From Paludibacteraceae bacterium (lineage in GTDB: Bacteria > Bacteroidota > Bacteroidia > Bacteroidales > Paludibacteraceae): 64,000 nucleotides of DNA. The position numbers and the translations under genes are program-made. Positions 4,328-38,160 of the stretch are shown here, piece by piece (position 1 is the stretch's first letter; each line of letters begins with the position of its first letter). The stretch lies in contig JAZSEB010000024.1 in assembly GCA_045531475.1 (NCBI GenBank), positions 88,017 through 152,016 on the forward strand. Reading direction: 5' to 3'. A model generated the notes under the pieces. The model was not told the origin of the DNA and did not search any database. It saw only the letters and a list, made by a program, of their open reading frames with translations.

Positions 4328-6584
4328 TTCGCTCTAGTTTCGCATAGGTAACGAGCAATGTTTTCTTACCAACTTGATCAAATTGTATATCAATCTTATC
4401 GTTATCGTTTTCTCGATATACCGCTAGCACTGTTCCATTGCCGAATACACGATGGTTGACGCGATCATCTTTTTGCCATTCCGAACGAATAGCTTTCTTC
4501 TTTCCTTTTTCTTGCATACCGGTTGTACGAGTGAGGTGTGATGGGCCAGATATGCTAGGCATGTTGCTTACTACCTCCTTCTTGCTGCTGGATGACATAG
4601 GTTTTCGGGTAGGTTTTAATCCGTCGGTTTGTAGTAAGAATTGATTATCAATATCTTTCAGGAAACGCGAAGGAGTAGTGAAGTTCACTTGTCCATTGCG
4701 GAATCGTTGTCGTGCCCACATGAGGTAACAACGTTCCATGCTACGGGTAATGGCTACATACAATAATCGGCGTTCTTCTTCAATCTCACGCACGGTTTGG
4801 CAGAAAGCAGAAGGGAATAAATTCTCTTCCAGACCAACGATAAAATTAGTGTTAAATTCCAAACCTTTTGCTGCGTGAATAGTAAGTAGGGTAACACGCG
4901 CTTGGGTATCGTCAAGATGTTCATCTTGATCAGTAAGTAAGCTAACTTCCGATAGAAAATCTGCGATAGGTGTGAAGTCTATTCCTTCTTTTTTGCGGCG
5001 TTCGCAGAACTCATGGATACTGCTCAACATTTCTTCTAAGTTTTCCCAACGAGCAATACCTTCTTGAGTAGTATCAGCTTTTGCCTCGCGCATGATGCCA
5101 CTTTCGGTTAGTATATCTTTGGCAAAGTCATAGGCATTTTTTGTTGCGGATTCTTCTGCGTAGCGATGAATCATTTGTGCAAACTCCAGCACTTTTTTCT
5201 GGGTGGCAACGGATAATTCTGTGCCCAAGTTCTCTGGAGCTGAAGCTATGTTCATCAGCGAACATTTATTGCTACGGGCAGCATCATATAGTTTATTAAT
5301 AGTGGTCTCTCCAATGCCTCGTGTAGGGAAGTTTACAATACGCAAGAATGCCTCGTCATCGGATAGGTTGGTTGCTAGTCGCAAGTATCCCAACGCATCT
5401 TTAATTTCCTTTCGTTGGTAGAAACTAGTACCTCCGTATATACGATATGGAATGGATAGTTGGCGTAGCTCATCCTCTATAACGCGCGATTGAGCGTTCG
5501 TACGATACATCACTGCTATATCGTCGTAACTCAGGGCGCTGGCATTAAGGCGCATGAGCAGATGTATTTGTTGAGCTACTGCTTTGGCTTCATCGCGGTC
5601 ACTCATGTATGTAGCAAGAGATATCCGTTCGCCTATTCGCAGTTCCGAATAAACGTTTTTTTGTATTTGCCCTTTGTTGTGTCTGATTAGGGAGTTGGCA
5701 GCATTCACGATGGTTTGTGTAGAACGATAGTTTCTCTCCAGTTTGAATAGTTTAGCATCGCTATAGCCCTTCTGAAAGTTCAGAATATTGCTGATATCTG
5801 CACCGCGGAACGAATAAATCGACTGTGCATCATCTCCCACTACGCATACGCGGTTCTCAGGCGCCGCTAGTTGCTTAACCAGCAGATATTGACTATAGTT
5901 AGTATCTTGATACTCATCTACCAACACATATTCAAACATCTCTTGATATTTCTTCAGTATATCCTCATGCTTTGCGAATAGCTGATTGGTTTTCATTAGC
6001 AGGTCGTCAAAATCCATAGCATTTGCGGCTTTCAGTCTTCGGTTGTATTCGATATAGATACGTACCATATCGTACATCTTCTCAAAGCGGTCTCTCATAA
6101 GATAATCGCGATTGGCTGCGTATTGATCAGGACCTTGTAATAGGTTCTTAGCCATAGATATTCTATTGTGTACTACTGATGCTTTGTACACTTTGTCATC
6201 CAAACGAAAATCTTTGATGATATGCTTAATTACTGATTTGGAATCTGTAGTGTCATACACACTAAAATCGCGTGTGTAACCCAATACTTCGGCTTCTTGG
6301 CGGAGCATGCGAAGGCACATCGAGTGGAATGTACCCATCCATAAATATCGGGCCGTATGGTCGCCTACTAGTTGACTAATACGATTTTTCATTTCTCGTG
6401 CAGCTTTGTTGGTAAAGGTCAATGCTAATATGCGGCTTGCTGCTACACCTTGTTCCAGCAGATATGCAATCTTATAAGTTAGCACACGTGTCTTGCCAGA
6501 TCCTGCACCTGCAATCACCAAGTGAGGACCATCGTTGTACAATACAGCTTCTTGTTGAGAAGGGTTAAGTTCAGAGAGATTCAT
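4323..6584 (-). CDS. pcrA: ATP-dependent DNA helicase, UvrD/PcrA/Rep family (SF1)
   Basis: 753 aa. Walker A AGAGSGKT, DEYQDTN, FRGA, YRS, TIHAAKGLEF, VAITR. Confidence 0.85.
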   Translation of the reverse strand: MNLSELNPSQQEAVLYNDGPHLVIAGAGSGKTRVLTYKIAYLLEQGVAASRILALTFTNKAAREMKNRISQLVGDHTARYLWMGTFHSMCLRMLRQEAEVLGYTRDFSVYDTTDSKSVIKHIIKDFRLDDKVYKASVVHNRISMAKNLLQGPDQYAANRDYLMRDRFEKMYDMVRIYIEYNRRLKAANAMDFDDLLMKTNQLFAKHEDILKKYQEMFEYVLVDEYQDTNYSQYLLVKQLAAPENRVCVVGDDAQSIYSFRGADISNILNFQKGYSDAKLFKLERNYRSTQTIVNAANSLIRHNKGQIQKNVYSELRIGERISLATYMSDRDEAKAVAQQIHLLMRLNASALSYDDIAVMYRTNAQSRVIEDELRQLSIPYRIYGGTSFYQRKEIKDALGYLRLATNLSDDEAFLRIVNFPTRGIGETTINKLYDAARSNKCSLMNIASAPENLGTELSVATQKKVLEFAQMIHRYAEESATKNAYDFAKDILTESGIMREAKADTTQEGIARWENLEEMLSSIHEFCERRKKEGIDFTPIADFLSEVSLLTDQDEHLDDTQARVTLLTIHAAKGLEFNTNFIVGLEENLFPSAFCQTVREIEEERRLLYVAITRSMERCYLMWARQRFRNGQVNFTTPSRFLKDIDNQFLLQTDGLKPTRKPMSSSSKKEVVSNMPSISGPSHLTRTTGMQEKGKKKAIRSEWQKDDRVNHRVFGNGTVLAVYRENDNDKIDIQFDQVGKKTLLVTYAKLERI

Positions 6585-8077: not shown

Positions 8078-9084
8078 AACGTCTTTTCCCTTTTCTTATA
8101 CTCTTTTTTGCTCTCCCACTTTCTGCTCAGCAGTGGTATTTTTGGATTGACAAATACCACGAGGCAGAGCGTCCTTTTCTAAAAGAATCCAAACGGGTGA
8201 TGGTAGTCAACAATGCGGTGAACCAACCTGCTGATTTTGGCCATTCGGTGGTTGTAGATGGCGTCCCCACTTCGCAAGAAGAGGTCGCACTGGATAATGC
8301 AGCTTTGCATTGCCTTTTTGCAGCGGTGCAAACAATGAACGAGAGTCTAGAGTTAGAGCAAGTGGAATTGCAGGAAAAAAGCCAAAACACGAGTCTAGAT
8401 TTCTATTCGCGTCGCCCGCTCCCTACGAATATAGCGCAGCAGTTATGTGCTCAGTACGAGGTGGAAGCGTTGCTGGTTCTCAATCAATTAGTCCTCTATA
8501 ATATCGTTGAAAGTTATCCCTCTAAAGGTACTTATTTTGCTTACTTGCAAGCATGTGCTCAAGCCCATTGGACGGTCTTTCACCGCAATGGTCGTCAGCA
8601 TGTCTTCACGACTGCTGATACGCTTTTTTGGGAGAGTGACTTGGGGTATACACGTCAGGAGGTACTTCGTCAGCTCCCTGCTACACAGGAAGCGTTGCTG
8701 TATTTGGCACGTGAAGTGGGAGCCTCTACTGCAGAATCGCTGATAGGACAATGGTTGCCTGAAAAACGATATTTGTATGACTATGATAACGGAGTTATCA
8801 AAAAGGGTCTCAAAGCATCGCAGTACCAACGTTGGGAGGACGCTATTCGTCTTTGGTCCTCTGTCTGCGATGATGCCAATCGTAAGGTGGCAGCAGTAGC
8901 TAGTGCTAATATTGCTATTGCTTACGAGCTTTTGGGCGATTATGCTTCTGCTTGCGATTATGCCCAGCGTGCCATCCGCCTTTTCGGCGCTTGGAAGACG
9001 GCTTACGGTCGTCAGCAGCAAGTGAACATACGCTACTATCTGGAGCAGCTCCGAGACCGTCAGGCAAAGGCAAGCGCTCAATAA
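8074..9084 (+). CDS. Hypothetical secreted protein with a TPR-like C-terminus
   Basis: 336 aa. Signal peptide MKRLFPFLILFFALPLSAQQ. Its ATG overlaps the stop of the upstream gene (ATGA). TPR-like ..IAIAYELLGDYASACDYAQRAI.. No family recognised. Confidence 0.5.
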   Translation: MKRLFPFLILFFALPLSAQQWYFWIDKYHEAERPFLKESKRVMVVNNAVNQPADFGHSVVVDGVPTSQEEVALDNAALHCLFAAVQTMNESLELEQVELQEKSQNTSLDFYSRRPLPTNIAQQLCAQYEVEALLVLNQLVLYNIVESYPSKGTYFAYLQACAQAHWTVFHRNGRQHVFTTADTLFWESDLGYTRQEVLRQLPATQEALLYLAREVGASTAESLIGQWLPEKRYLYDYDNGVIKKGLKASQYQRWEDAIRLWSSVCDDANRKVAAVASANIAIAYELLGDYASACDYAQRAIRLFGAWKTAYGRQQQVNIRYYLEQLRDRQAKASAQ

Positions 9085-10180
9085 CTTTCTGCAAGAATCG
9101 CTCAATCTTATTAAAGAATTGCTTATCTTCGGGGCTCACTAGTGTGATTGCCTCGCCTTTGTTTTCTGCGCGAGCGGTGCGACCGATACGGTGCACATAG
9201 TCTTCTGCATCGCGAGGTACGTCGTAGTTGATCACGAGCGGTATATCATCTACATCTATTCCGCGGGATACAATATCGGTGGCTACTAATACATCCACTT
9301 TGCCGTTCCGGAAGTCCAGCATTACTTCGTCGCGCTCTTTCTGCTCCAGGTCGGAGTGCATAGCACGTGCATCTATACGATTCGCACGCAGCGTACGAGT
9401 CAGCTCTTTCACCTTTTGCTTCTTCCCTACAAAGATGATAACTTTTTTTAGTCCACGCTCTTTAAGCAAGAGTTTGAGGAAATCGTTCTTTTGTGGTTCG
9501 TAAATATCAGCTGCTTGTTGCTTGATACTTTCTGGCGGACGTGAGATAGCTATCTGCACTTCTACAGGATTGTGCATGATGGCTTTTGCCATTTTGCGGA
9601 TATTCGTTGGCATAGTAGCCGAGAACATAATCGTCTGGCGCTCTTTAGGCAACTTATTGACGATGGTCATGATGTCGTCATAGAAGCCCATATCCAACAT
9701 GCGGTCTGCTTCATCGAGGATAAAATACTTCACACCCGAGAAGTCAATATCATAGATATTCATTTGGCTGAGCAATCGTCCTGGTGTAGCGATGACAATA
9801 TCTGCACCCTTCTGCAAACCAGTCACTTGCGTGCCCCAAGCACCGCTATCGTTACCGCCATAGATAGCCACGGATGAGAATGGAACATAGAACCCAAAAC
9901 CTTCCATTTGTTGGTCTATCTGCTGTGCTAGTTCTCGGGTGGGTGCCATGATGATGGCATTCAGGCGGTTGGGATCGTGGTTGTCGTATTGAAGGTTGGT
10001 GAGGAGGGGCAGGATATATGCGGCTGTCTTGCCTGTACCTGTTTGCGCACATGAAATCACATCGTGTCCGTCCAGTATCACAGGGATGGTCTGCTCTTGC
10101 ACAGGTGTGCAAGTATCAAAATGCATATCCCACAATGCATCCAATACCTGATCTGATAATGCTAATTCGTCAAAATACAT
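8915..10180 (-). CDS. DEAD-box ATP-dependent RNA helicase with a basic C-terminal tail
   Basis: Q-motif TPVQEQ, AQTGTGKT, PTRELA, DEAD, SAT, HRIGRTAR. Start set at MYFDELALS (10180) because the upstream extension contains the promoter box. Confidence 0.9.
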   Translation of the reverse strand: MYFDELALSDQVLDALWDMHFDTCTPVQEQTIPVILDGHDVISCAQTGTGKTAAYILPLLTNLQYDNHDPNRLNAIIMAPTRELAQQIDQQMEGFGFYVPFSSVAIYGGNDSGAWGTQVTGLQKGADIVIATPGRLLSQMNIYDIDFSGVKYFILDEADRMLDMGFYDDIMTIVNKLPKERQTIMFSATMPTNIRKMAKAIMHNPVEVQIAISRPPESIKQQAADIYEPQKNDFLKLLLKERGLKKVIIFVGKKQKVKELTRTLRANRIDARAMHSDLEQKERDEVMLDFRNGKVDVLVATDIVSRGIDVDDIPLVINYDVPRDAEDYVHRIGRTARAENKGEAITLVSPEDKQFFNKIERFLQKVIERLPLPDGLGAAPDSSVCSLAADDRKPSSKRRKGGWHAGHNRKQKHNRPKARKQ

Positions 10181-10203
10181 ATCAAAATTTCTATAATAGG
10201 GTG

Positions 10204-10211
10204 CAAAGGTA
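10204..10211 (-). promoter_or_regulatory. -7 promoter box (TACCTTTG) for the DEAD-box helicase
   Basis: Exact TAnnTTTG on the minus strand, 24 nt upstream of the ATG at 10180. Confidence 0.55.
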
Positions 10212-10314
10212 CTGAAAAATTTACAGATATGCAATAATCAGTGTGGAAAATGCCAATTTGATAGTGAAATTAAGAGAGAGGGTAAGATAAGCTTTACACC
10301 AAATTCATAAAAGA

Positions 10315-11316
10315 CTAACCTTTCATGAGTTTAACAACTTTATAACCAATTTGACAAATAGCGGTGATAGCTATGCAGAGATATTTGTGTTTCAAGCATA
10401 ACTTTGTCCACCATGTCCAGCAATAGGCAGGTTTTGTATAGTGGGTATAGTCAGAACGAGTGATATAAGAATCTAAACGGTCGTAGAAGGCACGCACATC
10501 TGCTATTTTAGGAAGTTTCATCAGTCGTTTGCACGACATCCATATATTCCAACTACCTCCTTCCTGTATGCTCAAGGCACATGCAGAAGATTGATCTTCT
10601 AATGAGTGATAGAACTTTAACATGCGCGTTCCAAGCAAGAAGTAGTCTGAGAAATGCTTGTATGAACTAGTATGGGTAGTTGAAGAAGCATTATAATGTA
10701 CACGATATGCACATATATCGCTATACATCATGCGCTTAGCGTAATATAGATGTACTGCTACAAAATCTGAATCTTCAAATAATACATCTTCTGCAAATGG
10801 ATAATTCACTTGTTGCAAGAAAGATCTACGATAGATATAGGGCCATGGAGCACTTCCCCAATAAGGATGTTTTATCTGCATTTCAGCGCCAGAGAAAATG
10901 CCCTCTAACGTGATTGGTTCTTTATCTGTAATCACTCCTTTCTCATTCACACTAACATAATGCATCGCTACCATGTCAAGTTGGTGTTTTTCTGCAAGTT
11001 GCAAGGCATTGAGCAGACCAAAATTTGTTTCATCATCACTATCTACAAAAACTATATACTGACCTTTCGCAATACTAACACCCCTATTGCGAGCAGCTCC
11101 TTGGCGATGGTTCTCTAATTGGCGAAGTAAAGTGATATTGGTATGGGTAATCGCATATTGCTCAACTACTTGTATTGTATCATCTTTGGAGCAATCATCT
11201 ATGACAATAACCTCAAAATCTTGATCTTCTAAAGATAGATTATAAATACTATCCAAACAACGCGTGATAGTACTGCTCGCATTGTAGGCAGGGATGATGA
11301 AAGAGAGATGTTTCAT
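10315..11316 (-). CDS. Glycosyltransferase family 2
   Basis: MKHLSFIIPAYNASSTI..VIVIDDCSKDDT..FVDSDD (GT-A fold, DxD). ATG at 11316 preferred over the TTG at 11340. Confidence 0.85.
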   Translation of the reverse strand: MKHLSFIIPAYNASSTITRCLDSIYNLSLEDQDFEVIVIDDCSKDDTIQVVEQYAITHTNITLLRQLENHRQGAARNRGVSIAKGQYIVFVDSDDETNFGLLNALQLAEKHQLDMVAMHYVSVNEKGVITDKEPITLEGIFSGAEMQIKHPYWGSAPWPYIYRRSFLQQVNYPFAEDVLFEDSDFVAVHLYYAKRMMYSDICAYRVHYNASSTTHTSSYKHFSDYFLLGTRMLKFYHSLEDQSSACALSIQEGGSWNIWMSCKRLMKLPKIADVRAFYDRLDSYITRSDYTHYTKPAYCWTWWTKLCLKHKYLCIAITAICQIGYKVVKLMKG

Positions 11317-11324
11317 AAATGTAT

Positions 11325-12223
11325 TTATATTAACGGACAAACGCTCAATAATTTATCCAAATCAATGGTTGGTTTTTGCCAAGATTGTAAATGGTCTTGT
11401 ATCACTTCCGGAGTTATAGTGTCAAAATTTAGTGGCTTAGATATATCCTTGTTAACCGATAAATAATAGTCTTTGAATTTGAAATTATCATCAGGATGGT
11501 TCTCGTCTAATGAGATCCAAACATTAGGTATTTCGTAGGCATCTGCGATGATTATTCCATGTAATGATGAAGATACAATTGCTTCGCAAGAACAAATATC
11601 ATCTATGAAAGAATGCCATTGATAAAACCGCTTTGGATTGATTATCAATATATTACCCCCCCTAAAATAGTATTTAACTTAGAATATATAGCCTCGTTTG
11701 TTTTAGTGCTAACATGAAGAATTACTCCATACTTATAGCGCTTTTCTACATTAGGAGTATAATATCTTGGAAATAAGAGAGCAGGATCTCCATAAACTTC
11801 AGGACATTCAATGCCTCTCGAAAGCAATAATTGACGAGTTAATGGTCCCCGAACAGCTCGCACAGACAATGGTTTATCTATGGTATTCCAAAGAGGATCT
11901 TGTGAACTTAATGTTCCACTACCCCACACAATCGTATTTCTATCAATAGCCCATGGCAAGATAGAACCCATCATAGCGACAGTTTCTTTCTTGCAAGAAA
12001 ATTTATAAGGAATGATTGACTTACCTGAAATAAGTTCGGCTAATTTTACGTTAACAAAATCGCCCCAATTATATGGCTTGATTTTGCTGCTCCAAGTGTA
12101 AATATTAGAATTTATCCAATACTTGAGTGAGATATATTTGGGTTTGATTAGTGCAGTAATGGCATACCTACACTTAAGTACTAGTGGATATCTCCAGAAC
12201 TTGTATTTAGAGGGTATTTTCAT
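11325..12223 (-). pseudogene. Polysaccharide pyruvyl transferase split by a frameshift at a G7 tract (C7 on the plus strand, 11656-11662)
   Basis: Track ORFs 11645..12223 (N-terminal half, ..VWGSGTL..) and 11325..11648 (C-terminal half, ..IVSSSLHGIIIADAYEIPNVWI..) are the two halves of one PS_pyruv_trans-type protein. Adding one G fuses them in frame. Confidence 0.75.
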
Positions 12224-12257
12224 GATGTTTTGTGGATGATGTTTAACTCATTGACAC

Positions 12258-12592
12258 AAAAAAAGCGGTCATCTGCTAACAGAGGTCCGCTTTTGCACAT
12301 ATACAAAAAAAGCGGGACCTGCACTGTTGCTGTTCCGCTACTTGAGGCCTTCGCATTGCCTATAACTCTGAACAAGCAACACCGAAGCCCACGCCGATAT
12401 GTATGCACACATACACACCCTCATGGTGCGTATGGAGATAGATATACATATCCCGAGGACATCAAAATGCTGCAATGTGTTGGAGTTATAATTGAAAGTT
12501 GCGAAGTTTCAAGTAGCCAATCACATAGCGTGTTATGACGCCTTTATTATGTCTGTAACTACCCACCCGAAAGACATAATCCCAAGGCGTGG
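12258..12592 (-). ncRNA. Candidate structured RNA: either a stand-alone sRNA or a riboswitch-like 5' leader of the pyruvyl-transferase/GT2 operon
   Basis: Strong promoter at 12607-12614. A 10-bp long-range helix pairs 12586-12595 with 12386-12395. Internal hairpins at 12546-12580 and 12410-12434. Two tandem hairpin-plus-U7 terminators (12339-12305 and 12294-12258) lie just before the ATG at 12223. No known RNA family recognised. Confidence 0.4.
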
Positions 12593-12606
12593 GCTCATTA
12601 CGGGTA

Positions 12607-12614
12607 CAAAGGTA
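12607..12614 (-). promoter_or_regulatory. -7 promoter box (TACCTTTG) with a TTTG -33 element about 20 nt upstream
   Basis: Minus strand reads ..atTTTGctcaatccaaaataattcacTAccTTTGtacccg.. Confidence 0.6.
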
Positions 12615-12668
12615 GTGAATTATTTTGGATTGAGCAAATAAAAATTGCTTTTAAGGGCGATTTTATTG

Positions 12669-12711
12669 GTATAGGGTGTAAAGTATAGGATGTAGAGCGT
12701 AGTGGGAAAGG
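12669..12711. repeat. Low-complexity 'CACC/TACAC' module, inverted orientation
   Basis: The rc reads cctttcccactacgctctacatcctatactttacaccctatacc. Same word class as 51833-51878 and 53657-53694. Confidence 0.6.
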
Positions 12712-12760
12712 CTGGTTTTGGGAATAAGAAAACTAGCCTATCCTTATTATATTCATTGCT

Positions 12761-12818
12761 TAATCACTAACTAATCACTAACTAATCACTAACTAATAAC
12801 TAACTAATCACTAACTAA
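12761..12818. repeat. Tandem array (TAATCACTAAC)x5, 11-nt unit
   Basis: Five head-to-tail units read directly; the fourth is TAATAACTAAC. This is the exact reverse complement of the array at 37394-37448. Confidence 0.95.
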
Positions 12819-12825
12819 GGTATTT

Positions 12826-12936
12826 AGAGAGAAGAGAGAAGAAAGAGAAGAAGACGGAAGAAGAGAAGTAGGTAGAGAGAAGATAGAAGGAGAGAGTGAC
12901 GGAGAGGGAAGAAGAGGGGAGAAAGAGAGAAGGAAA
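12826..12936. repeat. 111-nt polypurine (GA-rich) tract
   Basis: Only 6 pyrimidines in 111 nt (12855, 12869, 12873, 12884, 12897, 12900). Built from GAGAA/GAAGA words. Confidence 0.95.
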
Positions 12937-12981
12937 CTATGAGTTATAACTGATAAACGGTAGTGTGGTGGACAATGTATC

Positions 12982-13015
12982 ACAAAAACAGCAGCTACCG
13001 ATGGGGTAGCTGCTG
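12982..13015 (-). terminator. Intrinsic terminator of the SDR-family gene
   Basis: Stem CAGCAGCTACC (12989-12999) pairs with GGTAGCTGCTG (13005-13015). On the minus strand a TTTTTGT run follows. Confidence 0.6.
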
Positions 13016-13069
13016 ATATAATGATTTGATAGGAGGAAAGAACTCTCTATCTCGCATATGCTAGATATA

Positions 13070-14596
13070 TTACTTCTCCCAGCCATCAAACACTTCAGGA
13101 CCATACACATTGTCTTCATTAGCGTCATGAAGTGGAGCCCATAGTTGTGCGAAAAATGGATTCTTCTTTGCCACTTTATCCCATTGCCATGGACGAGCAT
13201 TCTTCTCGCCTTTGTATGGATATGGCATACACTCCTCACACCAGTGGCCACCTAGCAATACCAATCGTGGTGTAGCGGTAAACTTATGCCCTTCAGCACA
13301 CTCCCACTCCAGTGGAGTGTCCCAATCGCCTTGCACCATGTCTTTTGACAAGCACTTGCCTCCGCGGAAAGCCGCCGCTTTTTGCATATCCTCAATGGTA
13401 AACAATGCTTTGGGCTTTTGCTCATCGTAGCCATGGTCAAGCAATACATACTCCTCGCTATTGTGCGATACATCGGTATGCTTCCAATCTGGAATGGCTT
13501 TGTATGCCTCCAAAGTGCCATAATATGCACTGATGCGTTGGGTCTTGTTGTGCTTAATCCACCATTGCGTACCATGCTCCTTGGACATCGCCATGGCGTA
13601 CATAGCGAGTTTCACGCAACGTGGGAAGAGTTTGGCAATCTTAGTCTTAGCCGCGAACTTGATACCCCATGGCACACTGTCTGCCTTAGCCATCTGCTTA
13701 AAATACTCTTTCACTGGCACGTTGGCGCGGAAGTGCAAGTAGTTCTCCAAGCGGTCGCCGTCGATATACCACATACCGTGGAAATTGCGTGTAGTAAACC
13801 ACTTCGCCTCAAAGATTTTCTCTGGGCGAGGGCAACCAATAGCATCTAGCAACAAGCACTCAAACTCATAGTTGCTGATGCGGTACTCCTTGCCCGAACC
13901 TATATTGTAGTAGTTCTTCCAGAACTCCTCTGGTACCTCATCGCGGCAGACACGCTCCAGTAGTCGTCCGCTATCTTCTACAGTAGCCCACTCCAACACG
14001 CCACGGATTGGCACATGGAACATGATTGGGTCATAGTTCTTCAAGATAGCAGGGTAGAGGATACCCGACTGACGAAGTGCAACCCATTGTTTGATAGGCG
14101 AATTGGTGATGATACGCTCTGCTTGCGCTTTGGTTAGACCATAGTGGTCATAAGCCGATACGCAGATAGGGTCGCCAGCACGTCCCCAATGGAGTGGCTC
14201 GCGGCGGTCACCCATCTGAGCGACACTACCGATATACACCACTTTAGGTTGCTTGTACTCTGGTTGCGCGAGCACCGCATCGCGGATATTGATAGCCGCG
14301 GAAATGTTGGTGCGCAAAGTAGCCTTAGGACGGTAGTCAGCCTGTGGTGAAACCATACCACCTACATGGAGTACGATGTCGGCACCTGTGACACCACGAA
14401 GGATATCTTCGTATTTGGTAAGATCGCCCCAGATGACTTCTACTTTGTCCATCAGTGGCGCAAGCAGTTCTTTGTTTTTAGCACTTGGGCGAGCCAATAT
14501 ACGCAAGTGATAGTTCTCGGGGTAGCGCAGGATCTCAGTCATGCCTGCATATCCCATTGTGCCTGTGGCACCTGTGAGGAAGATTGTTTTTTTCAT
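13070..14596 (-). CDS. NAD(P)-binding SDR/epimerase-family protein with a large C-terminal extension and Cys-rich tail
   Basis: MKKTIFLTGATGTMGYAG (Rossmann GxxGxxG). C-terminal ..WECAEGHKF..HWCEECMP zinc-ribbon-like segment. Start set at the ATG at 14596. Confidence 0.65.
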   Translation of the reverse strand: MKKTIFLTGATGTMGYAGMTEILRYPENYHLRILARPSAKNKELLAPLMDKVEVIWGDLTKYEDILRGVTGADIVLHVGGMVSPQADYRPKATLRTNISAAINIRDAVLAQPEYKQPKVVYIGSVAQMGDRREPLHWGRAGDPICVSAYDHYGLTKAQAERIITNSPIKQWVALRQSGILYPAILKNYDPIMFHVPIRGVLEWATVEDSGRLLERVCRDEVPEEFWKNYYNIGSGKEYRISNYEFECLLLDAIGCPRPEKIFEAKWFTTRNFHGMWYIDGDRLENYLHFRANVPVKEYFKQMAKADSVPWGIKFAAKTKIAKLFPRCVKLAMYAMAMSKEHGTQWWIKHNKTQRISAYYGTLEAYKAIPDWKHTDVSHNSEEYVLLDHGYDEQKPKALFTIEDMQKAAAFRGGKCLSKDMVQGDWDTPLEWECAEGHKFTATPRLVLLGGHWCEECMPYPYKGEKNARPWQWDKVAKKNPFFAQLWAPLHDANEDNVYGPEVFDGWEK

Positions 14597-24039: not shown

Positions 24040-24240
24040 TCGTTGGCTCGATTCCCCGAGAGCGTTCAACTTCGTCAACATTTTTGTTGACGGCACGCAG
24101 CAGGTCTTCTGACTTATCGCTCCTTTGTTCTGCCTTCCCAACCTACTATAGGTCAGTGACTTTCAAGATATTGAACATTGGATTGCGAATCACAGCAGCG
24201 GGACTGTATAGGAATTACACCTATTTCCCTTGACTGAATG
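24040..24240 (-). promoter_or_regulatory. Cobalamin (B12) riboswitch 1
   Basis: Minus strand reads ..AAGGGAAataGGTGtaAtTCC..CAGtCCCGCTGCTGTga..GTCACTG..GGGAAGGC..gataAGTCAGAAGACCTGC (B12 box). About 85% identical by eye to riboswitch 2. Confidence 0.85.
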
Positions 24241-24245
24241 CGTTG

Positions 24246-24253
24246 CAAAGGTA
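24246..24253 (-). promoter_or_regulatory. -7 promoter box (TACCTTTG) driving riboswitch 1
   Basis: Exact motif immediately upstream of the aptamer. Confidence 0.55.
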
Positions 24254-24336
24254 CAACTTTTTTCTATTTTGTGCAAATAAAACGAAAGAAAAATGAAAAT
24301 TTGCAATCTTTTTTTGCAGATTCATATATTTTTCTG

Positions 24337-24344
24337 TACCTTTG
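24337..24344 (+). promoter_or_regulatory. -7 promoter box (TACCTTTG) for the patatin-like gene
   Basis: Exact motif 15 nt before the ATG at 24359. It lies inside the extended track ORF. Confidence 0.55.
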
Positions 24345-24358
24345 TACCCGCAATTCAG

Positions 24359-33209: not shown

Positions 33210-33400
33210 CTTAAGCCCTATACCACGAGAGCGTTCAACAAATGCATGTAGCAGGTCTTCTGACTTATCGCTCCTTTTGTTCGGCCTTCCCACCTTAGAG
33301 GCAGTGACCTAAGAGATAGTGAACATCGGATTGCGAATCACAGCAGCGGGTCTGTGCAGGATTTTCACCTGCTTCCCTTAGCGGGTCCCCGACGAGCCTC
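33210..33400 (-). promoter_or_regulatory. Cobalamin (B12) riboswitch 2
   Basis: Minus strand reads ..AAGGGAAGCAGGTGAAAATCCTGCACAGACCCGCTGCTGTGA..GTCACTGCC..GGGAAGGCC..GATAAGTCAGAAGACCTGC. The btuB ATG lies about 45 nt after the B12 box. Confidence 0.9.
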
Positions 33401-33437
33401 GTGGGCGAGGGGGGGTGCTCTTTAACTAAATGCGGTG

Positions 33438-37393: not shown

Positions 37394-37448
37394 GTTAGTG
37401 ATTAGTTAGTGATTAGTTAGTGATTAGTTAGTGATTAGTTAGTGATTA
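37394..37448. repeat. Tandem array (GTTAGTGATTA)x5, 11-nt unit
   Basis: Five perfect units. Reverse complement of the 12761-12818 array. Sits in the divergent MarC/efp promoter region. Confidence 0.95.
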
Positions 37449-37503
37449 ACCTATCTTTTCCGAAATTTTATAGGGATTTCTTGCGTATATGCAAAAAATA
37501 TCG

Positions 37504-37596: not shown

Positions 37597-38160
37597 ATGA
37601 TTAACTCTCAAGACGTAAAGAACGGTGTATGTATCCGCATGGACGGCCGTTTGTATTTTGTAATTGACTTCCTGCACGTTAAGCCAGGAAAAGGTAACAC
37701 CATTATGCGTGTAAAATTCAAAGATGTAGTAGATGGTCGCGTATTGGAGCGTCGCTTCAATATCGGCGAGAAATTGGAGGATGTTCGCGTAGAACGCCGT
37801 CCATACCAATACCTCTATAAAGAGGGTGAGGACTATATCTTCATGAACCAAGAGACTTTCGAGCAAGTGCCTATCGGTCACGACCTTATCACTGGCGTAG
37901 ATTTCCTCAAAGAAGGTTTTGTTTGCGACGTTGTATCTGACGCTTCTACCGACACTATCCTCTTCGCTGAGTTGCCAACCAAGGTTGAGTTGGTAATCTC
38001 ATACACCGAGCCAGGTCTCAAAGGCGATACCGCTACCAACACCCTCAAACCTGCTACTCTTGAGACAGGTGCTGAGATCCGCGTTCCTCTCTTCTGCAAC
38101 GAAGGTGAGACTATCCGCGTAGATACCCGCGACGGTAGCTACTGCGAGCGCGTTCGCTAA
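37597..38160 (+). CDS. efp: Elongation factor P
   Basis: 187 aa. ..HVKPGKG.. loop and OB domains typical of EF-P. Confidence 0.95.
   Translation: MINSQDVKNGVCIRMDGRLYFVIDFLHVKPGKGNTIMRVKFKDVVDGRVLERRFNIGEKLEDVRVERRPYQYLYKEGEDYIFMNQETFEQVPIGHDLITGVDFLKEGFVCDVVSDASTDTILFAELPTKVELVISYTEPGLKGDTATNTLKPATLETGAEIRVPLFCNEGETIRVDTRDGSYCERVR

Follow-up and report, generated by a model that had tools for sequence, protein, structure and literature searches.

A large multi-fold RNA, one copy of a family widespread in gut Bacteroidales, and its possible link to UpxY-type antitermination

Introduction

Earlier genetic work on the UpxY antiterminators, which act on the capsule operons of Bacteroides, was reportedly done by Chatzidaki-Livanis and colleagues. 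In the polyketide operons of Firmicutes, the NusG paralogue LoaP needs a leader RNA hairpin and reads through leader terminators. In Enterobacteria, RfaH works with the ops/JUMPStart element, a single leader element found before many unrelated acquired operons (surface, capsule and mobile). Here we describe a conserved leader RNA of about 297 nt, at 12305-12601 on the minus strand of a 64,000-nucleotide stretch of Paludibacteraceae DNA (GenBank assembly GCA_045531475.1, contig JAZSEB010000024.1, positions 88,017 to 152,016; the whole stretch is called the window below). This RNA belongs to a family that is widespread in gut Bacteroidales and has no entry in Rfam, and some members stand directly upstream of a UpxY gene.

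The closest described leaders are those of the Bacteroides UpxY/opsX capsule operons. In B. fragilis, UpxY loads on RNA polymerase paused at ops-like sites, aided by nascent-RNA hairpins in the capsule-operon leaders, and the pause hairpin ends about 9-16 nt before the pause site, according to the part of the published description used here (PMC11685472). As in these systems, the RNA separates the promoter of capsule or surface operons from their first gene, this first gene is often of the UpxY family (24 of 101 members, not including the window), and glycosyltransferases, a flippase and acyl- and pyruvyl-transferases are among the cargo. In our family a hairpin with a U-run, which might act as a pause site, stands 45-47 nt ahead of the upxY genes of the 243-aa type; in B. 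fragilis the distance to the upxY start is 9-42 nt, with outliers at 25 and 111 nt (PMC11685472). The two differ in other respects. The B. fragilis leaders, which we compared by description, have variable sequences, a short pause hairpin and a DNA-level recognition site, and a conserved RNA of 300-500 nt with long-range exclusive helices is not seen in that part of their description (PMC11685472). In our family the promoter has no flanking inversion repeats, most copies lack an adjacent upxY and lack upxZ, and many copies lie in integrase-bearing mobile elements of Prevotella.

The LoaP leaders share with the present RNA the combination of a specialised NusG paralogue, a cis leader RNA and an intrinsic terminator in front of a long accessory operon. 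They differ by phylum and by protein subfamily, and the RNA described here is far larger, with several alternative folds. The likeness to RfaH lies in the use of one leader element before many unrelated operons. One NusG paralogue can serve such operons in trans, which we infer by analogy for the UpxY-less copies of our family. The ops element is a 12-nt DNA element and JUMPStart spans ~39 nt, whereas here an RNA structure of ~300-500 nt is conserved.

The leader RNA belongs to a family spread over gut Bacteroidales

A blastn match of 80.6% identity linked the RNA region of the window to a homologue in another locus (L023, 5217-5574). The two sequences are similar from the promoter to a point just past the first U-run. 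The gene behind this homologue encodes a BspA-type leucine-rich-repeat protein and not a pyruvyl transferase. On this alignment, the conserved RNA runs from its predicted start, ~12601, to the end of the first U-run at 12305. The promoter (12607-12638, minus strand), as read from the sequence, is of the Bacteroidetes type, with a -33 TTTG at 12638-12635, a 20-nt spacer and a -7 box TACCTTTG at 12614-12607. It had been noticed in a preliminary description of this DNA, and in our alignments the same layout is found at the 5′ edge of all family members. The promoter profile also matches upstream of many ordinary genes in the related genomes and loci.

Members were gathered by iterated nhmmer and degenerate pattern scans, and redundancy was collapsed at 95% identity. 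We scanned species-representative genomes with a 508-aa protein encoded next to the RNA, which gave 80 loci (L001-L080), nearly all from Paludibacteraceae and other Bacteroidales gut bins of ruminant or other origin. Iterated nhmmer recovered ten full-length copies, the window's and nine others in 8 of these 80 loci. These ten protein-anchored copies are independent of the degenerate 3′-domain pattern which was used for the metagenome scan. That scan returned at least 120 contigs, and the member counts given here are among the matches listed. The same pattern matched five viral contigs, three of which hold true members. Of the 125 newly fetched loci (the metagenome contigs and the five viral ones), 94 carry a near-full-length member.

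The family comprises at least 101 members of about 290-490 nt, 81 of them non-redundant at 95% identity and 63 at 88%. They come from Paludibacteraceae bins, from Prevotella pectinovora genomes and from human, rodent and ruminant gut metagenomes, including Prevotella/Segatella. The closest relative of the window copy (L201) is 88% identical to it. When the family profile was run with nhmmer, it matched the window stretch with E = 1e-57 and found no second copy in the window.

The absence of a known RNA family, also suggested in the preliminary description, held in our searches. With Rfam 15, no match reached the gathering threshold in the RNA region (best E in 12100-12900, 0.89), and the only matches at that threshold in the 64-kb window were two cobalamin riboswitches located elsewhere. 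Rfam gave no match in 19 member-carrying loci either. A BLAST search of the RNA against phage and plasmid collections returned only a 76-nt match between a Prevotella-type member and an unannotated "Bacteriophage sp." record. In the literature searched on Bacteroides and Prevotella RNA surveys, UpxY, NusG and leader RNAs, we found no description of this RNA. Human-microbiome surveys have produced a catalogue of thousands of candidate RNAs (PMC8040213). Unnamed candidates in it, such as a 109-bp palindromic Bacteroidetes motif near phage integrases, could overlap parts of the RNA.

By its size (300-500 nt), strong covariation, wide distribution and frequent location in mobile or prophage-like DNA, the family resembles the large RNAs OLE, GOLLD, ROOL, raiA and HEARO. 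It differs from them in having no Rfam match, in its occurrence in Bacteroidales and in its consistent position as a co-oriented 5′ leader ending in a terminator-like hairpin.

Covariation supports a long hairpin, a pseudoknot and an alternative helix

The RNA region of the window contains a perfect 10-bp inverted repeat (12586-12595 / 12386-12395), whose arms are 190 nt apart. On the minus strand, AGCCCACGCC (12595-12586) is fully complementary to GGCGTGGGCT (12395-12386). These arms had been proposed to form a closing helix, here called P1. A perfect long-range repeat of 10 bp was also present in 106 of 2000 dinucleotide shuffles of the region (5%) and is thus not significant alone. The minimum-energy fold of the single sequence omits P1 and forms instead a hairpin of ~180 nt, in which 12517-12425 pairs with 12337-12419. 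The 353-nt RNA folds at -139.6 kcal/mol (z = -7.8 compared to shuffles), and the opposite strand also folds better than shuffles (z = -5.5). Such single-sequence features are weak evidence and cannot settle the case, which is made by the comparison with relatives.

We therefore relied on a tool-made alignment of 63 sequences (A3). The pattern used in the metagenome scan fixed the P1 3′ arm and the blocks RCCUCR and CGYUUU, which therefore look more conserved than they are. An unbiased scan of column pairs ranked helices X1, Y, X2 and X3 highest, and its top 30 helices also include X4, Z, P1 and PT, the pairing of the P1 3′ arm with the terminator 3′ arm (P1b:T3). Taking the nested X helices together with the P1 pseudoknot, 94.3% of the alignment cells are paired, compared with 83.0% in shuffles and 33-43% when the partners are slid. 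In this structure 27 pairs, or 360 cells, changed on both sides against 120 in shuffles, a level reached by none of 500 shuffles. Across the pairing, we counted 576 G·U cells but only 59 A·C cells, which points to selection on the RNA of the strand co-oriented with the downstream gene, not on the DNA.

The dominant feature is a long interrupted hairpin which the preliminary description had missed, together with helix Y and the covariation of the terminator stem; the architecture described there was thus incomplete. The 5′ strand of the hairpin (12517-12467) holds X1a at 12517-12509, X2a at 12506-12500, X3a at 12491-12483 and X4a at 12473-12467. Its 3′ strand (12382-12337) holds X4b at 12382-12376, X3b at 12368-12360, X2b at 12355-12349 and X1b at 12345-12337. 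Eight of the nine pairs of X1 and six of the seven pairs of X2 changed on both sides. RNAalifold recovered the hairpin from A3 and extended it by X0 and W.

P1 forms a pseudoknot with this hairpin. Its 5′ arm (12586-12595) pairs with its 3′ arm GGCGUGGGCU (12386-12395), and in the family (columns 160-167/652-659) pairing is kept in 94.5% of cells, among them UG wobble variants and double changes to UA. Changes in the 5′ arm are C-to-U and A-to-G, which keep G·U pairs. The CG-to-UA double changes are also seen in the ten pattern-independent copies. The closing helix with its 190 enclosed nucleotides is thus present and conserved in related genomes, and only these comparative data validate it. 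The 3′ arm appears to be a switching segment with three partners: the P1 5′ arm (P1a), W (columns 505-657, CG 49 / UA 5) and the terminator 3′ arm, in PT. PT is 97.2% paired, and its columns 657-743 show GC 58 / AU 5 without mismatch. A local 5′ hairpin of the minimum-energy fold, CCCAC/GUGGG, was considered as the true partner of P1a. It was rejected, being 66-92% paired per column and weaker than P1.

The other helices are smaller. P2 (12546-12580) is the 9-bp hairpin 12546-12554 / 12572-12580, also found earlier; its 3′ arm holds the conserved block GACAUA, and its 5′ part is variable or expanded elsewhere in the family. P3 (12527-12542, GGCGU / ACGCU, columns 372-376/420-424) is 97.1% paired, with three pairs changed on both sides. 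Helix Z (12396-12452) pairs 12452-12447 with 12401-12396, is 94.2% paired and is capped by a tip that varies in length and sequence among members. A 10-bp hairpin at 12410-12434, highlighted in the preliminary description, does exist, but it belongs to this variable tip and is not a core element. Alternative helix Y (12326-12380) joins 12380-12370 to 12335-12326 by eleven pairs, eight of them compensatory, and is 96.1% paired. The terminator-like hairpin T (12305-12338) pairs GCGGAAC (12338-12332) with GUCCCGC (12318-12312), followed by a U7 tract (12311-12305). Its stem (columns 715-721/740-746) is 86.8% paired, with six of seven pairs changed on both sides. Downstream of the U-run, GUGUC is conserved in the family. 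The window copy keeps X1, X2 and X4 (22 of 22 pairs in the minimum-energy fold), as well as Z, P1, P3 and Y.

The blocks GACAUA, GGCAAUG and AUAUCGGCGUGGGC are highly conserved and, in most members, lie outside the counted helices. Two consecutive, near-invariant A·C mismatches (62 of 63 and 58 of 60) separate X1 from X2 (A3 columns 444-445 with 707-708; window 12508-12507 with 12346-12347), and the GGCAAUG block is beside X2. We regard these mismatches and GGCAAUG as candidate recognition sites for a protein or a ligand.

Helices compete for the segment upstream of the U-run

Several of these helices draw on the same nucleotides. X4 and Y have five alignment columns in common (window nucleotides 12380-12376), and Y and T have three (window nucleotides 12335-12332, taking the full terminator stem). 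X1, like X0, shares the terminator 5′ arm with T, and the 3′ strand of the long hairpin also overlaps the Y 5′ arm. Because of these shared columns, X4 and Y, X1 and T, and Y and T are mutually exclusive. The RNA is therefore a multi-fold device built around the 25 nt before the U-run.

We then looked at equilibrium folding of transcripts ending at the terminator 3′ arm. The outer X1 pair had a median probability of 0.89 and the terminator base pair a median of 0.01, while Y and P1b:T3 both averaged about 0.05. When Y was forced, PT usually formed on its own. As T covaries, it must form under some condition.

This arrangement recalls the trp leader and the PyrR-controlled pyr leaders, in which segments pair 1:2, 2:3 and 3:4 (here X, Y and T) and exclude each other through shared nucleotides, and in which the last pairing is a hairpin with a U-run directly upstream of the regulated gene. 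The present RNA differs in that it has no leader peptide, its downstream genes do not form a biosynthetic pathway, and the first of its pairings forms a hairpin stem over 30 bp long, with a pseudoknot to the 5′ end. A leader peptide or small protein, as in trp-type attenuators, was ruled out by the absence of a conserved ORF inside the RNA. No ORF of at least 25 codons begins at a conserved start, and 6 of 63 members have none at all. In the window, short ORFs of 62 and 45 aa (minus strand) and 102 aa (plus strand) cross the region; none has a conserved counterpart among the homologues, in agreement with the earlier view that the region holds no credible ORF.

Most members lie directly upstream of a co-oriented gene

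For the gene context, we took the nearest ORF of at least 100 aa in those 79 non-redundant members whose downstream sequence extends over 400 nt or more. This ORF is on the same strand as the RNA in 76 of 79 members, and the median distance from the U-run to its start is 56 nt. A TAnnTTTG (-7) box is present in only 3 of the 76 spacers, and none is found between the U-run and the ATG in the window. A close, co-oriented gene, few boxes in the spacer and no conserved internal ORF are together the signature of a 5′ leader. The preliminary description had left the choice between a stand-alone small RNA gene and a large riboswitch or attenuator; the leader or attenuator side of that choice fits these counts, and the stand-alone small RNA is disfavoured.

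The genes behind the leader are diverse. They include GT2 glycosyltransferases, DegT, MBOAT, LytTR, a type III restriction-modification methylase, BspA-type leucine-rich-repeat proteins, OmpA/DUF5723 and proteins with lipoprotein-like signal sequences. A GT2 gene follows both the window copy and its closest relative, L201. A leader specific to pyruvyl-transferase and GT2 genes, the association proposed from the window alone, was rejected: we found no related locus with those genes, and the cargo is very diverse.

One Paludibacteraceae genome, represented by locus L023, contains two strongly diverged copies (5203-5551, minus strand, and 8222-8592, plus strand) within 3 kb, on either side of the same conserved gene. 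One is followed by a BspA-type leucine-rich-repeat protein and the other by small ORFs with lipoprotein-like N-termini.

The commonest downstream gene encodes a UpxY-family protein

A NusG-like gene lies directly downstream in 24 of the 101 members (18 of the 81 non-redundant ones), which makes it the commonest downstream gene. A representative of these NusG paralogues scored 123 bits against NCBIfam NF033644, "UpxY family transcription antiterminator" (cut-off 100). The same protein reached only 16.8 bits (E = 0.0055) against the LoaP model NF033641, whose cut-off is 125, and so does not belong to the LoaP subfamily.

Two subtypes were observed. The 243-aa subtype starts 45-47 nt after the U-run, inside integrase-bearing Prevotella elements; a tyrosine integrase precedes it, and a sigma-70-like gene and a long single-strand operon follow. 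The 182-aa subtype heads a standard capsule locus, in the order RNA, upxY, 125-aa gene and wzx. In Prevotella pectinovora, the RNA is 44 nt upstream of a gene that NCBI itself names "UpxY family transcription antiterminator". The window differs: we found no UpxY-like ORF in its 64 kb, and the first gene after the RNA is a pyruvyl-transferase fragment. UpxY and UpxZ were rejected as the genes directly downstream there, Pfam identifying the two ORFs as pyruvyl-transferase fragments.

Some further features of the UpxY-bearing loci were noted. In a Prevotella pectinovora genome (GCA_041323955.1, locus L207, 7095-20650), a tyrosine integrase is followed by the leader RNA, a upxY-like gene, a 209-aa gene and more than 15 same-strand genes. 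The 209-aa gene occupies the position of the sigma-70-like gene of locus L082, and the operon includes dynamin- or septin-like GTPases, a Sel1-repeat protein and a radical SAM protein. The whole is an unclassified integrative element beside a capsule locus. The 243-aa UpxY-type proteins (L082, 1554-2285, and homologues) carry an N-terminal extension of ~65 aa before the NusG N-terminal domain. An iterated HMM built from them also matched leucine-rich-repeat proteins behind other RNA copies (L023, 3954-5186); this may be due to an N-terminal region common to both groups or to drift of the profile. In the standard capsule locus L127, ACGTACGT-type motifs at 1926-1961 and about 2660-2672 flank the promoter-plus-leader segment. 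They resemble what we take to be the inverted repeats of Bacteroides invertible promoters (ARACGTWCGT). If this likeness holds, the whole 0.7-kb promoter-plus-leader unit might be invertible there.

Proposed function and alternatives

On balance, we lean towards reading the RNA as a cis-acting 5′ leader of accessory operons, whose competing helices would control pausing, termination or read-through and which, in at least two lineages, would be tied to UpxY-type processive antitermination. The family, its helices and their exclusivity, the gene context and the identity of the partner protein are computational results; transcription, termination at the U-run, the switch with its trigger and direction, and the part played by UpxY are deduced. 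A transcription-attenuating leader linked to a NusG paralogue is a known kind of regulator. What is new is the RNA itself, its size, its long-range multi-fold architecture and its spread over unrelated accessory operons and mobile elements.

The following course of events can be proposed. The strong housekeeping-type promoter would start transcription near 12601. In the nascent RNA, the small 5′ hairpins P2 and P3 would form first, then the long interrupted hairpin (X0-X4, W and Z) would zip up; alternatively, the 5′ end could pair into the top of this hairpin and form the P1 pseudoknot. The decision point would be the last 25 nt before the U-run, where the T 5′ arm could be claimed by X0/X1, by Y or by the terminator 3′ arm, the latter being able in turn to pair with the P1 3′ arm. 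The set of helices present when the polymerase arrives on the U-run would decide between pausing or termination and read-through into the gene 25-90 nt downstream. Our committed guess on direction is that the long hairpin would be the default and would mask the terminator arm. A factor or signal that opens the base of this hairpin, or favours Y with P1b:T3, would then produce the pause or termination hairpin. In copies with a UpxY gene, the hairpin and U-run might be the site where the paralogue is loaded onto the polymerase, which would then resist termination along the whole long operon. The UpxY-less copies, including that of the window, would plausibly be served in trans, as RfaH serves many ops-bearing operons.

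Several points weigh against this interpretation. The promoter, transcript ends and termination of every member are predictions. T covaries yet rarely forms in equilibrium folding, and the direction of the switch is not readable from the sequence. Both the X-state (via T) and the Y-state (via P1b:T3) can put a hairpin before the U-run, and termination might be constitutive, with the alternative folds serving another purpose. The statistics for P1 and PT rest mostly on variation in one arm, the 3′ arm being fixed by the pattern, and helix X3 is poorly aligned in A3. A UpxY gene is not adjacent in 77 of the 101 copies, the window's included, and the link may hold for some subfamilies only. Finally, the gene downstream of the window copy is frame-shifted, and this copy may be a relic without a working gene to control.

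A wider proposal, which we put forward only as a tentative possibility, is that the family is a new class of large multi-fold regulatory RNA which gates, at the RNA level, an antitermination regulon of UpxY/NusG paralogues in gut Bacteroidales at large (Prevotella/Segatella, Paludibacteraceae and others). The leader would have been copied to capsule, surface-protein, restriction-modification and mobile-element operons. The switch between the long hairpin and Y/P1 would integrate a signal and decide whether the paralogue is loaded and the horizontally acquired operon expressed. If this were true, the family would be a counterpart to RfaH/ops that works by an RNA switch. Outside B. fragilis, the way in which specialised NusG paralogues locate their operons is not settled, and our analysis suggests a part for RNA structure in addition to DNA ops sites.

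Bacterial RNAs that are large, covary strongly and belong to no curated family are uncommon, and new biochemistry has often come from them. The present family is abundant in human and animal gut metagenomes and occurs in Prevotella/Segatella, a dominant and genetically under-studied gut genus; it precedes genes that determine capsule type, surface proteins, phage defence and the expression of mobile elements. With a covariance model of the family, hundreds of blank intergenic gaps of 0.5-1.4 kb could be annotated and the 5′ ends of accessory operons marked in Bacteroidales.

Other explanations were weighed against the leader. Each copy has a strong promoter and, at a conserved distance, a hairpin with a U-run, as would be expected if the RNA were a stand-alone, trans-acting small RNA of ~300 nt and the downstream genes mere neighbours, the RNA gene for instance marking a cargo edge. 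The tandem terminators of the window, the location of copies in several species at cargo hot spots that flank one conserved gene, and the two diverged copies within 3 kb in L023 also agree with this. We nevertheless judge it improbable. With a same-strand gene in 76 of 79 members and no -7 box in 73 of 76 spacers, those genes would be promoterless unless reached by read-through. The U-run is interrupted in several members (e.g. CGCUUUCUGU), which would terminate poorly, and the start codon of the 243-aa UpxY-type genes is fixed at 45-47 nt after it.

A riboswitch must be considered as well. Here the P1-closed fold, with P2, P3, X, Z and their junctions, would be an aptamer for a small molecule or second messenger, and the ligand, by stabilising P1, would withhold the P1 3′ arm from the terminator 3′ arm and so switch the leader between read-through and termination. 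The competition of P1a and the terminator 3′ arm for this one covarying segment is the usual layout of a riboswitch expression platform. Conserved blocks outside the helices (GACAUA, GGCAAUG and AUAUCGGCGUGGGC) and the two A·C mismatches near X1 would suit an aptamer, and diverse downstream genes are known for riboswitches that sense global signals. Against this, no known class matches in Rfam, the controlled genes have no common metabolic theme and form no coherent set, and 300-500 nt with large variable insertions is unusual for an aptamer. The best-supported helices make a simple long hairpin, not a compact multi-helix junction, and the strong link to a protein antiterminator suggests a mechanism based on protein and polymerase. 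We consider the riboswitch quite improbable too.

The 77 copies without an adjacent UpxY gene would be explained if the RNA modified the polymerase directly, like put of phage HK022 or EAR of Bacillus, and gave termination resistance with no need for a NusG paralogue. Its position immediately before a terminator-like site and the presence of a large conserved structure at the head of long single-strand operons (more than 15 genes in Prevotella pectinovora) are compatible with such a role. However, put and EAR are much smaller, no similarity to any Rfam family was found, the covarying alternative folds point to regulation instead of one active fold, and the strong enrichment in UpxY genes argues for the involvement of a protein. 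This makes the explanation very unlikely.

A DNA-level element is largely refuted and barely credible. Here the inverted repeats would be sites of recombination around an invertible segment, the two ends of a miniature transposable element, or an attachment site. In its favour, a 10-bp inverted repeat that encloses 190 bp ahead of surface and polysaccharide genes recalls the invertible promoters of Bacteroides, each of the two strands folds better than shuffles, the inserted segment is low-GC and tyrosine integrases lie upstream of some copies. Against it, the promoter (-7 box 12614-12607) is outside the repeat (12595-12386), all 101 of 101 homologues are collinear with the inner segment never inverted, and the window has a single copy. 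Pairing is also kept by G·U wobbles, which in DNA would count as mismatches, and many helices other than terminal repeats show compensatory changes. Two specific candidates of this kind were thereby rejected, namely an invertible promoter, given the promoter position, the lack of any inverted homologue and the G·U wobbles in the arms, and a miniature transposable element or repeated palindrome, given that the other local similarities to the one copy are an 11-nt array and generic promoter sequence.

The window copy and its surroundings

Both hairpin-plus-U7 elements proposed as tandem terminators, the intrinsic-terminator feature seen by eye, are present in the window, but only the first is conserved, and the family stem that covaries is that of T. 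The second (about 12258-12294, minus strand; stem 12294-12261, then U7 and GUGUC) is found in the window only and is missing from the closest homologues, the L023 copy and L201. It repeats a 13-nt core of the first as a direct repeat (two copies 47 nt apart), and the GUGUCAAU trailing its U-run resembles the family 3′ consensus CGCUUUUUUUGUGUC. It looks like a duplicated 3′ module specific to the window. The first U-run ends 81 nt and the second 34 nt before the ATG at 12223. A simple terminator consensus scan called neither element, probably because of the 13-nt loop of the first and the stem mismatches of the second.

The RNA lies in an 846-bp spacer. Next to it, a 508-aa SDR/epimerase-like gene occupies 13070-14596; on the other side, the downstream cargo (10315-12223, minus strand) consists, according to Pfam matches, of a split pyruvyl-transferase gene (11645-12223 and 11325-11648) and a GT2 glycosyltransferase gene (10315-11340), and is followed by a DEAD-box helicase gene (8915-10234). 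Exact-protein look-ups with three window proteins returned no record. A one-base frame change near 11645-11648 divides the pyruvyl-transferase gene (11325-12223) into two ORFs, the first of 192 aa, which matches Pfam profile positions 86-189, and the second of 107 aa, which matches positions 237-279. The split could be due to a pseudogene, a sequencing error or a programmed shift.

In most related species, the 508-aa gene and the helicase gene are adjacent (12-50 nt apart), while in the window they are separated by a low-GC insert of ~2.8 kb. This junction (10235-13069) is a cargo hot spot: inserts of 1.7-4 kb are present in the window and in seven other loci (L001, L023, L024, L036, L037, L050 and L055), and their genes differ between species.

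Upstream of the promoter, an 11-nt tandem repeat GTTAGTGATTA in 5-6 copies is found at 12750-12815 and again at 37395-37449. Both arrays are just upstream of unrelated TACCTTTG promoters, that of the leader RNA and one before ORF 37597-38160, which looks like elongation factor P. The array could serve as an upstream promoter element or bind a protein, or it could be a tract prone to slippage. A pure pyrimidine (CT-rich) tract of ~130 nt separates these repeats from the terminator of the 508-aa gene; it extends over 12830-12960 on the minus strand and has an extreme strand skew (GC skew 0.56, AT skew 0.52). The two cobalamin riboswitches of the window are at 24082-24253 (minus strand, 85.9 bits) and 33233-33416 (minus strand, 77.9 bits), for an Rfam gathering threshold of 31.5. 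The promoter region 5′ of the first one (24303-24354) is 75% identical over 52 nt to the promoter of the leader RNA.

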